DNA from: an uncultured Gammaproteobacteria bacterium
GTDB lineage: Bacteria; Patescibacteriota; Patescibacteriia; Magasanikbacterales; GWA2-37-8
Reading direction: 5' to 3'
Length of the DNA stretch: 60,050 nt
Assembly (NCBI GenBank): GCA_964478235.1
Contig: CAYZGX010000006.1
Coordinates: forward strand, 1-60,050
The notes under the pieces are model-generated. The model had not been told where the DNA came from and did not search any database. It worked only from the letters and a program-made list of their open reading frames with translations. The position numbers and the translations under genes are program-made. Positions 31,654 through 32,386 of this stretch are shown here, in pieces. Numbering within the stretch: the stretch's first letter is position 1; the number at the start of each line of letters is the position of its first letter.

Positions 31654-31760
31654 ACCAATCAGTTTTCTGTAAGAGAGATTAATTGATTGGTCAAAACGAC
31701 CTAGTCCGTTTTTAGAGGGAACGGGCTACATCGCAGTAAAACCCTGAGGAGGGTGTTGCC
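31654..31760 (+). promoter_or_regulatory. Structured leader, copy A (three hairpins, SD embedded in the last)
   Basis: P1 ACCAATCA(31654-61)/TGATTGGT(31684-91). P2 AGTCCGT(31703-09)/ACGGGCT(31721-27). P3 ACCCT-GAGG-AGGGT (31741-54). ATG at 31761. Confidence 0.5.
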
Positions 31761-32192
31761 ATGAAGGAAAAAGCAATTCGCACGCTTTTGTTCGGTGAAG
31801 AGAAGAAGATTGTCGGTATTCACCCGCGGGTGCCCGAGCTGTATCGCGAAGGGTGTCCCAAGATGTCCCACTTTGAAGGGGCGTTTGCGGAGCTTCTCGA
31901 AAAGATCGAAGAGGCTGTCCAACTGGGAGAAAAAATCCGCAAGGGCTATTTCCCCGGCACGATGGTTGTTAAGATCTCGCCCGACAAGGTTTATTGCAAG
32001 GGTGGCGAGAAGCATCTGACCGGTACGGTGAAGGCTTCCGCCCTGCTCGCGGAGGTTGTCGTCTACGACCGGGAGACGCTTCTCGCTCGCCATGAAGACA
32101 CGCATCATCACAAGGATCTGCCGGAGGGCATCGATCTTTTCGTGGTGGCGGTCCACGGCTATCCGATGGGTGACTCTTCGAAGAGTCTCTAG
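31761..32192 (+). CDS. Hypothetical protein (143 aa), GC-rich island ORF-A
   Basis: GAGGAGGG lies 7 nt before the ATG. The plus strand is chosen over the stop-free antisense ORF because of the SD and the leader. No family motif recognised. Confidence 0.55.
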   Translation: MKEKAIRTLLFGEEKKIVGIHPRVPELYREGCPKMSHFEGAFAELLEKIEEAVQLGEKIRKGYFPGTMVVKISPDKVYCKGGEKHLTGTVKASALLAEVVVYDRETLLARHEDTHHHKDLPEGIDLFVVAVHGYPMGDSSKSL

Positions 32193-32290
32193 CGGACACA
32201 TTTTAGCAGGAGTGGCGGCCAGTTTCACTCGACATCTCGTCGAGCTGAGATTGGTCGCTTCTCCACCAATCTAGTTTACAATTCGTTGTC

Positions 32291-32386
32291 ACCAGCCAGT
32301 ATAAGAGAGATTGGCTGGTCATAACGACCTAGTCTGCTTTATGAGGGAGTGGACTATACCGCAGTAACCCTGAGGAGGGTAGCCTG
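32291..32386 (+). promoter_or_regulatory. Structured leader, copy B
   Basis: P1 ACCAGCCA(32291-98)/TGGCTGGT(32312-19). P2 AGTCTGC(32331-37)/GTGGACT(32349-55). P3 ACCCT-GAGG-AGGGT (32367-80). ATG at 32387. Confidence 0.5.

Follow-up and report, generated by a model that had tools for sequence, protein, structure and literature searches.

Two segments of the 60,050-nt stretch of contig CAYZGX010000006.1 analyzed here (hereafter the window), from an uncultivated small-genome bacterium, are paralogous copies of one noncoding structured 5′ leader RNA. Copy 1 (31644–31760, + strand) is the 5′ untranslated region (UTR) of a small open reading frame (ORF A), and copy 2 (32283–32386, + strand) is the 5′ UTR of a second small ORF (ORF B). 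The leader is a + strand RNA structure under purifying selection, and it belongs, as a member not described before, to the broad class of structured mRNA leaders. The reading that we tentatively prefer is that it constitutes a post-transcriptional module in which a long first hairpin (P1) may act as a processing or stability element, a small third hairpin (P3) may tune translation, and duplication may have given two partner proteins shared control.

Two copies of one leader

A repeat search of the window pairs a 58-nt core (31682–31739 with 32310–32367) at 79% identity and returns a 15-mer, AACCCTGAGGAGGGT, that is identical at 31740–31754 and 32366–32380; a 3′ block of 23 nt was matched in 0 of 100 shuffles. 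These results bear out the duplicated leader claimed in an original prediction made from the sequence by eye, but the accompanying statement that the copies align almost base for base was too strong, as pairwise alignment of the whole leaders spans 107 columns with 31 mismatches and 11 gap columns (identity of ∼71%). A covariance model built from the available copies scores its own copies at 105–132 bits (E 1e-24 to 1e-29), with copy 1 at 110.1 bits and copy 2 at 123.5 bits, and this model detects no third copy in the 60-kb window. A degenerate copy ahead of the next gene in the series, ORF C, was looked for and not found.

The two copies are laid out alike. In copy 1, P1 occupies 31644–31701, P2 31702–31728, and P3 31741–31754, with the Shine–Dalgarno (SD) sequence GGAGG at 31748–31752 and the ATG of ORF A at 31761. 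The corresponding positions in copy 2 are 32283–32327 for P1, 32330–32356 for P2, and 32367–32380 for P3, with the ATG of ORF B at 32387.

Several other identities for the repeat were considered and rejected. Coding sequence is ruled out by indels of 1–2 nt between the copies just ahead of the SD, which shift the frame, and by a stop codon that lies in frame in the window. An upstream ORF that would extend through P1 (ATGAGAGGGG...) is ruled out by its frame relative to the conserved loop motif, which is not the same in the window and in the close lineage L012 (introduced below). An attC integron site does not fit the GTT...AAC order seen on both strands or the SD upstream of an ORF inside the element, and a repetitive extragenic palindrome (REP) or miniature inverted-repeat transposable element (MITE) does not fit a sequence that occurs just twice in 60 kb. 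A pairing between the P1 loop and AAUCUC/UCUCUC ahead of ORF C was also set aside, these being mere 6-mers of which one is missing in L012.

Three hairpins in series

Each copy alone folds into three hairpins, with z-scores of −3.3 to −5.3, and the common fold proposed for both copies is thereby confirmed. The hairpins stand in series without a multi-helix junction. For copy 2 the folding energy is −40.4 kcal/mol on the + strand against −27.4 kcal/mol on the − strand.

P1 is long and nearly perfectly paired (∼23 bp in copy 1, 17 bp in copy 2), and it reaches further 5′ than had first been described, to 31644 and 32283. Its outer 3′ strand is the conserved CA(A/U)AACGA(CC), the partner of which lies at 31644–31652 or 32283–32289, and the extension yields one extra doubly changed pair between the copies (U-A vs G-U). 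No short-loop inverted repeat in the 60-kb window is longer than the P1 of copy 1, the other top matches being terminators. P2 is an 11-bp hairpin with an SD-like purine loop. P3 is a 5-bp hairpin (ACCCU/AGGGU, −6.3 kcal/mol, three G-C pairs) whose loop and 3′ arm together make up the SD. In the 3′ arm the four SD bases AGGG are paired with a probability of at least 0.94, and GAGG is left in the loop; P3 therefore occludes only half of the SD.

The placement of the SD within P3 bears on the possibility that the leader is a riboswitch or thermosensor, in which ligand or temperature would toggle P3 against a pseudoknot between the AGGG of the P2 loop and the anti-SD CCCU. An SD-like P2 loop does adjoin an anti-SD/SD hairpin in copies 1 and 2 of the window, in copy 2 of L012, and in the lineages L019, L065, and L061; the leaders fold far better than shuffled sequence; and the genes that follow have no known function, a common situation for orphan riboswitch candidates. 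The competitor pairing to which the original prediction drew attention can form in four of the five sequences from close relatives, but AGGG is missing from copy 1 of L012 (AGGAGAG), and the competing elements are otherwise invariant, hence covariation does not back the alternative pairing. As a row of three independent hairpins, the leader also provides neither a junction nor a conserved pocket, and the unpaired nucleotides are conserved only in the window/L012/L019 lineage, whereas a riboswitch would be expected to keep an unpaired aptamer core across distant relatives. The weak U-rich or non-canonical SD helix of the ROSE and fourU thermometers is likewise not seen, P3 having three G-C pairs. 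Finally, a candidate attenuator upstream would already regulate this operon. We consider a switch of this kind improbable.

Searches of Rfam 15 with cmscan (31400–33100 at E ≤10; the whole window at E ≤0.05) returned only spurious microRNA matches in the leaders, and the sole real match near them is Hammerhead_3, ahead of ORF C. At E ≤10 no Rfam riboswitch or thermometer matched the leaders, nor did hammerhead, twister, twister-sister, pistol, hatchet, hepatitis delta virus-like, hairpin, or hovlinc ribozymes. The original prediction had been unable to match the element to a known riboswitch or ribozyme consensus by eye, and the formal search agrees with it. Of the classes that it nonetheless put forward, riboswitch, thermosensor, and ribozyme gain no support, given the absence of any Rfam family at E ≤10, the lack of a junction, and loops that are limited to one lineage. 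A riboswitch or a new ribozyme is, in our judgment, unlikely.

Covariation and selection among close lineages

Protein searches with ORFs A, B, and C led to just two other close lineages, L012 (with identical contigs) and L019, and the close set comprises five distinct leader sequences from three lineages (window, L012, and L019). Across these five, standard pairs fill 97.6% of pair cells and five pairs are changed on both sides. The covariation score and the percentage paired were reached by 0 of 500 shuffles, and sliding the partners by 1–3 columns lowers pairing to 29–51%. The compensations read earlier in P1 (A-U/A-U vs G-C/C-G) hold up, as do the changes read in P2 (U-A vs C-G, with others kept through G-U wobble). 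The P1 compensations split the two paralogue groups, and each should therefore be counted as a single event rather than as several independent ones. P3 is invariant in all five sequences and hence carries no covariation evidence. With the addition of the more distant homologue from L061 the number of doubly changed pairs rises to 11, although this alignment was fitted to the model and the count leans toward structure.

The direction in which the stems have changed also identifies the strand. In copy 2, the 5′ arm of P2 is constant (AGUCUGCU) and the 3′ arm varies among the three lineages (AGUGGACU, AGCGGACU, and AGCAGGCU), and every one of these changes keeps its pair through the exchange of U-A with U-G or of G-C with G-U. 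In L019 the outer A-U pair of P1 has become G-U. Pairing that is kept through wobble in this manner works in + strand RNA only, and the structure is thus one of + strand RNA.

The same observations bear on a DNA-level explanation, in which the repeat would be a duplicated promoter/operator, its P1 palindrome a repressor site that flanks a −10-like TATAAG, and P1 the place where transcripts begin. Copy 2 carries TTTACA (32275–32280) followed after 19 nt by TATAAG (32300–32305), a strong terminator stands just upstream of copy 1 such that ORF A would benefit from its own promoter, and a palindrome also fits a dimeric DNA-binding protein. Yet G-U pairs are mismatches in DNA, which applies both to the change from A-U to G-U in the P1 of L019 and to three wobble positions in P2; neither leader yields anything in a promoter scan; copy 1 lacks a good −10 or −35; and the spacing of the P1 half-sites is 9 nt wider in copy 1 than in copy 2, so that no single operator geometry fits both. 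P2 and P3 would moreover lie downstream of such a start, yet they show pair-preserving change. An element acting in DNA is accordingly an improbable account of the repeat.

The leaders have diverged slowly. Between the window and L012 they differ by 6.5% in copy 2 and by 14.9% in copy 1, compared with 21–44% at the third codon positions of ORFs A, B, and C and of the methyltransferase and EamA genes. Each leader copy clusters with its positional orthologue from the other lineages and not with its paralogue, and the duplication is therefore older than the split of the three lineages, with both copies retained since. It might still be proposed that the repeat is a neutral remnant of a local duplication whose function is limited to supplying a ribosome-binding site. 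Such a remnant would be consistent with the presence of only two copies, with a narrow distribution over three close lineages, and with genome, metagenome, and viral pattern scans that found nothing else, but it would not be expected to evolve 2–6 times more slowly than synonymous sites in both copies since before the three-lineage split, to accept almost exclusively pair-preserving substitutions in its stems, or to keep its architecture upstream of distant ORF A homologues. We regard it as highly improbable.

The original prediction had named a recent local duplication free of structure-preserving variation as an outcome that would speak against it; the duplication instead predates the split of the three lineages, and the stem changes are nearly all pair-preserving. 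Its central claim, that of a functional, structured, cis-acting RNA, is supported by these changes together with + strand stability, slow divergence, and the architecture seen in distant relatives.

Distant relatives and the ancestry of the leader

An exhaustive HMMER search recovered 14 relatives of ORF A at 33–44% identity. The homologues in L060, L061, L062, L065, and L067 occupy the same neighborhood, with the methyltransferase gene or its 3′ end kept upstream in L060, L062, and L067 and the EamA transporter downstream in L061, L062, and L065. The order of elements common to these distant loci is promoter, small ORF, terminator, structured leader, and ORF A homologue.

The covariance model matches L061 at 325–428 (33.6 bits, E 3e-6) and gives weak matches in L065 (12.4 bits), in the leader of a C-like ORF in L061 (11.5 bits), and in L060 (8.2 bits); the matches in L061, L065, and L060 all stop exactly at the start codon. 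In 10 of the 10 leaders examined there is a P1 of 17–27 bp, of differing sequence, followed by a shorter P2, and in several of the ten, such as those of L061 and L065, there is a small SD-containing hairpin. Shared primary sequence is confined to the surroundings of GGUCA...UGAYUGGUC. The P1 and P2 loop motifs of the window lineage are absent from L060, L061, and L065, and L060, L061, L062, and L065 retain the hairpins but not the unpaired loop and linker motifs. The conserved feature is thus the long duplex and not a set of unpaired nucleotides.

The leader copy of ORF A is ancestral, and that of ORF B is a lineage-specific duplication. Pattern searches gave chance matches only, without any flanking motif, in contigs of GTDB representative genomes and of viruses (IMG/VR) (AACGACCTAGTC-N15-40-GCAGTAA), in JGI metagenome contigs (AAGAGAGAT-N2-20-GGTCANAACGACC), and in viral contigs (GGTCANAACGACCTAG), and no blastn match to the whole island was found in phage and plasmid collections. 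The leader is known from ∼10 sequences in one clade of uncultivated bacteria and is absent from Rfam 15.

The proteins encoded behind the leaders

ORF A (31761–32192, + strand) encodes a 143-aa protein of an orphan family, ORF B (32387–32737, + strand) a 116-aa protein with a basic N-terminus and a Cys/His motif, and ORF C (32999–33430, + strand) a further orphan of 143 aa. Substitutions relative to L012 number 23/15/64 at first, second, and third codon positions in ORF A, and the codon-position substitutions of ORF C are 14/5/30. None of the three has a family in Pfam, PHROGs, PADLOC, or NCBIfam, and a profile search of the PDB with their proteins found nothing. An AlphaFold2 model of ORF A from a 12-sequence alignment is confident, with a predicted local distance difference test score (pLDDT) of 87.6; its only Foldseek matches, the hypothetical proteins 4fbd and 2pd0 of apicomplexans (E 7.6e-4 to 2e-3, template modeling score 0.48–0.57), are uninformative.

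A relative provides the connection between the first two ORFs. The 200-aa protein P0012 (L062, 1764–2366) joins an N-terminal half like ORF B to a C-terminal half like ORF A: residues 1–96 of P0012 are homologous to ORF B (E 4e-12), and its C-terminal part aligns with ORF A. Because they are fused in this protein, the products of ORFs A and B very likely work together, as judged from sequence. The fusion also resolves the puzzle of one leader standing ahead of two ORFs that had been described as unrelated.

The codon usage of the three ORFs sets them apart from their neighbors. GC content at third codon positions (GC3) is 0.67–0.87 in ORFs A, B, and C (31761–33430) and 0.38–0.48 in the neighboring genes, and high values are kept in the distant syntenic orthologues of L061, L062, and L065, reaching 0.93 in L062. 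In L012, the JGI gene call for the ORF A orthologue (1430–1939, 169 aa) begins at a TTG inside the leader, which is probably a wrong start; the true start is likely the ATG at 1508, with GAGGAGG 8 nt upstream.

Promoter, candidate attenuator, and hammerhead at the same locus

The sole sigma-70-like promoter that a promoter scan finds on the + strand in 31300–33700 is TTGACC-17-TAGAGT at 31425–31453, and equivalent TTGACy-17-TAnnnT sites are present in L060, L061, L062, L065, and L067. Next comes a conserved 36-aa small ORF (MNSFHTYNLCTITVKVLPTFIAVRMNSRGEHGVSRA; 31464–31574, + strand), a candidate leader peptide, whose ATG is invariant across lineages and whose indels come in multiples of three. 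Thr, Ile, and Val abound in the middle of the peptide, without a clear tandem run. A strong intrinsic terminator follows (31602–31628, + strand; stem 31602–31618, U-tract to 31628).

The 3′ end of the small ORF, GGGGUGAA (31546–31553), is the 5′ strand of an antiterminator and can pair in seven of seven lineages with the antiterminator 3′ strand UUCAUCCC (31596–31603, + strand), which overlaps the 5′ arm of the terminator; in all seven the antiterminator helix forms in RNA that ends before the terminator 3′ arm. The helix covaries and in relatives is lengthened or gives way to different complementary sequence, with 12 bp in L061, 14 bp in L060, and UUUAGGGU/ACCCUAAA in L067. With a short ORF and mutually exclusive antiterminator and terminator helices, the region has the features of a leader-peptide-type transcription attenuator, for which it is a candidate that is not in Rfam. 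The attenuator would offer regulated read-through into ORFs A, B, and C, which would place both leader copies inside a polycistronic RNA. A conserved block ATGAGAGGGGTAT(N)CGGTCATTT comes right after the terminator in the window (31630–31652), in L012 (1380–1400), and in distant L060 (3116–3140).

Directly 3′ of ORF A is a long G-U-rich hairpin of ∼24 bp without a U-tract (32209–32264, + strand), and 32190–32290 folds at −43 kcal/mol with a z-score of −6.97. Folding gives a second long G-U-rich hairpin, also without a U-tract, directly 3′ of ORF B (32757–32816, + strand). Both may serve as 3′ stabilizers.

Ahead of ORF C lies a type III hammerhead ribozyme (32819–32884, + strand), predicted to cleave after C32826. 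It matches Rfam RF00008 (Hammerhead_3) at 41.8 bits (E 2.7e-7), below the gathering score of 48.5, apparently owing to a long stem II loop; in the RF00008 alignment the core CUGAUGAG...CGAAA is intact and the cleavage triplet is UUC, as in a type III hammerhead. Orthologues are present at the locus in L012 (2565–2631) and L066 (611–677) and, by eye, at about 2476–2545 in L065. At this locus the hammerhead always directly follows the long hairpin 3′ of the ORF A/B block.

A single pattern is seen three times: a 3′ hairpin of the upstream cistron, an interval of 2–20 nt, then P1 or the hammerhead, and then the next cistron. The terminator at 31602–31628 precedes the P1 that begins at 31644, the hairpin at 32209–32264 precedes the P1 that begins at 32283, and the hairpin at 32757–32816 precedes the hammerhead that begins at 32819. 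P1 is thus equivalent in position to the hammerhead.

The original prediction had noted that small self-cleaving ribozymes tend to cluster with hammerheads. New ribozyme classes have reportedly been found near hammerhead and twister loci. This precedent, the shared intercistronic slot, and loop and linker nucleotides that do not vary between the paralogues might suggest that a new small self-cleaving ribozyme is present in the leader. No ribozyme model matches it, though, and there is no junction or covarying pseudoknot. The homologous position in distant relatives holds a plain near-perfect duplex of 19–27 bp without a conserved core, more like the substrate of a protein nuclease. A new self-cleaving class is for these reasons extremely unlikely. 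A broader version, in which a new catalytic or ligand-sensing RNA class would be swappable with the hammerhead and would use the invariant blocks UAAGAGAGAUU, GAGGGA, and CGCAGUAA as active site or pocket, is very improbable as well. The clustering argument is better taken to reflect processing modules in equivalent positions than to speak for a new ribozyme.

Proposed role of the leader

There is reason to think that the leader acts after transcription. ORFs A, B, and C would be co-transcribed from the upstream promoter, and the order of the operon in one polycistronic transcript would be the small ORF with its attenuator, leader and ORF A, hairpin, leader and ORF B, hairpin, hammerhead, and ORF C. 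P1 may be a double-stranded RNA element for processing, stabilization, or both, of the kind represented by RNase III sites and 5′-cap hairpins. It would set each cistron free from upstream RNA and shield it, a counterpart of the job that the hammerhead would perform before ORF C. P3, perhaps with the SD-like loop of P2, would set the rate of translation initiation, and duplication of the ancestral ORF A leader ahead of ORF B would have brought partner proteins under the same control. RNase III-type processing calls for a duplex of ∼20 bp or more in which small internal loops are tolerated, and a P1 duplex of suitable length (17–27 bp) is found in 10 of 10 leaders.

Certain observations weigh against this tentative account. 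Processing and SD occlusion leave several blocks unexplained, namely UAAGAGAGAUU in the P1 loop, GAGGGA in the P2 loop, and the linker CGCAGUAA. All are identical between paralogues whose stems differ, and these invariant blocks point to a sequence-specific partner, whether a protein or a tertiary contact. P3 is weak enough that it might be opened by the ribosome without help. The promoter-like TTTACA-19 nt-TATAAG falls within the P1 of copy 2. Lastly, five close and a few distant sequences are too few to give R-scape power.

The invariant loops and linkers, being unexplained by processing, keep alive the alternative of a protein-binding translational operator, in which an RNA-binding protein would recognize these nucleotides and repress or activate A and B together. 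The protein could be a complex of A and B, the N-terminal half of ORF B being basic and Cys/His-containing, or a CsrA-like regulator that binds GGA in hairpin loops. In favor of an operator, the stems covary around loops and a linker that stay the same in both paralogues; purine loops with GGA occur in both P2 and P3, and one of them overlaps the SD; and shared autogenous control would hold the stoichiometry of two proteins that are fused in P0012. A CsrA/RsmA-regulated leader would carry at least two GGA motifs in hairpin loops, one of them over the SD; GGGA or GGA is seen in the P2 loop and GAGGA in P3, but the P2 loop of L061 has no GGA. The operator is less easily reconciled with the distant leaders, in which the loop motifs are lost though ORF A is kept, or with copy 1 of L012, in which the P2 loop is shortened and altered. 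Domain and family searches detected no RNA-binding domain in A, B, or C, and the Foldseek matches of ORF A give no guidance. We consider an operator on the whole unlikely, if worth serious attention.

Relation to known systems

Hairpins processed by RNase III are found between the early cistrons of phage T7 mRNA (R0.3–R1.3) and in the bacterial leaders of rnc and pnp. Like these sites, the leader described here is a hairpin that recurs in similar form, spans about two helical turns, and contains small internal mismatches, and its copies lie just upstream of successive cistrons of what would be one polycistronic RNA, right after the preceding 3′ hairpin. Long duplexes are otherwise rare in this genome, which adds to the likeness; cleavage in P1 is a prediction. 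In contrast to RNase III sites, the leader has P2, P3, and invariant loop motifs that such sites do not need, and in contrast to T7 the host is an uncultivated small-genome bacterium and not a phage.

A second group of relevant systems comprises leader hairpins that sequester the SD, such as the ROSE and fourU thermometers, and the 5′ stabilizer hairpins and STAB-SD elements of ompA, aprE, and cryIIIA. The 3′ arm of P3 is part of the SD, and SD-like purine tracts lie upstream of the true SD, as in these leaders; a stable hairpin near the presumed mature 5′ end is shared with the 5′ stabilizers. ROSE and fourU elements differ in that the leader has no Rfam match, P3 has neither a U-run nor a bulged G, and half of the SD is exposed in the loop.

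Hammerhead ribozymes are said to occur in intercistronic regions of bacteria, and the present operon has a type III hammerhead in the very slot that P1 fills before ORFs A and B, although the leader itself has no hammerhead core. The leader also resembles the orphan leader motifs of the Weinberg type in being a conserved, covarying 5′ UTR structure before hypothetical proteins that was found by comparative sequence analysis; it differs from those held in Rfam in being absent from Rfam 15 and in its small sample of ∼10 sequences from a single clade, which falls short of what support at the R-scape level requires.

Elsewhere in the window, its start (1–1546) lies inside a 16S rRNA gene that is followed by two tRNA genes, and a giant ORF of 3695 aa occupies 7384–18471. 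Further downstream, 35511–37548 holds a tRNA gene (35511–35584) and then a gene for an M1-family peptidase that, with a GC3 of 0.77 unlike that of its neighbors, may have been acquired.

How uncultivated small-genome bacteria regulate their genes has hardly been studied, and literature searches turned up no paper on their structured RNAs or hammerheads. The interest of the present locus stems less from the repeat itself than from its RNA-dense organization: within 2 kb, a candidate attenuator, two copies of an uncatalogued leader, cistron-capping hairpins, and a hammerhead are packed around orphan genes with aberrant codon usage, and the copying of a regulatory leader would have put under common control two partner proteins that occur as a fusion elsewhere. 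Should P1 prove to be a processing site, one task would be performed interchangeably by a ribozyme and by an element that depends on protein. If the leader were instead a new catalytic or sensing RNA, three different RNA devices (the attenuator, the new RNA twice, and the hammerhead) would be present in 2 kb of a reduced genome. The locus is thus a concrete, testable case of RNA-level operon organization in such bacteria.

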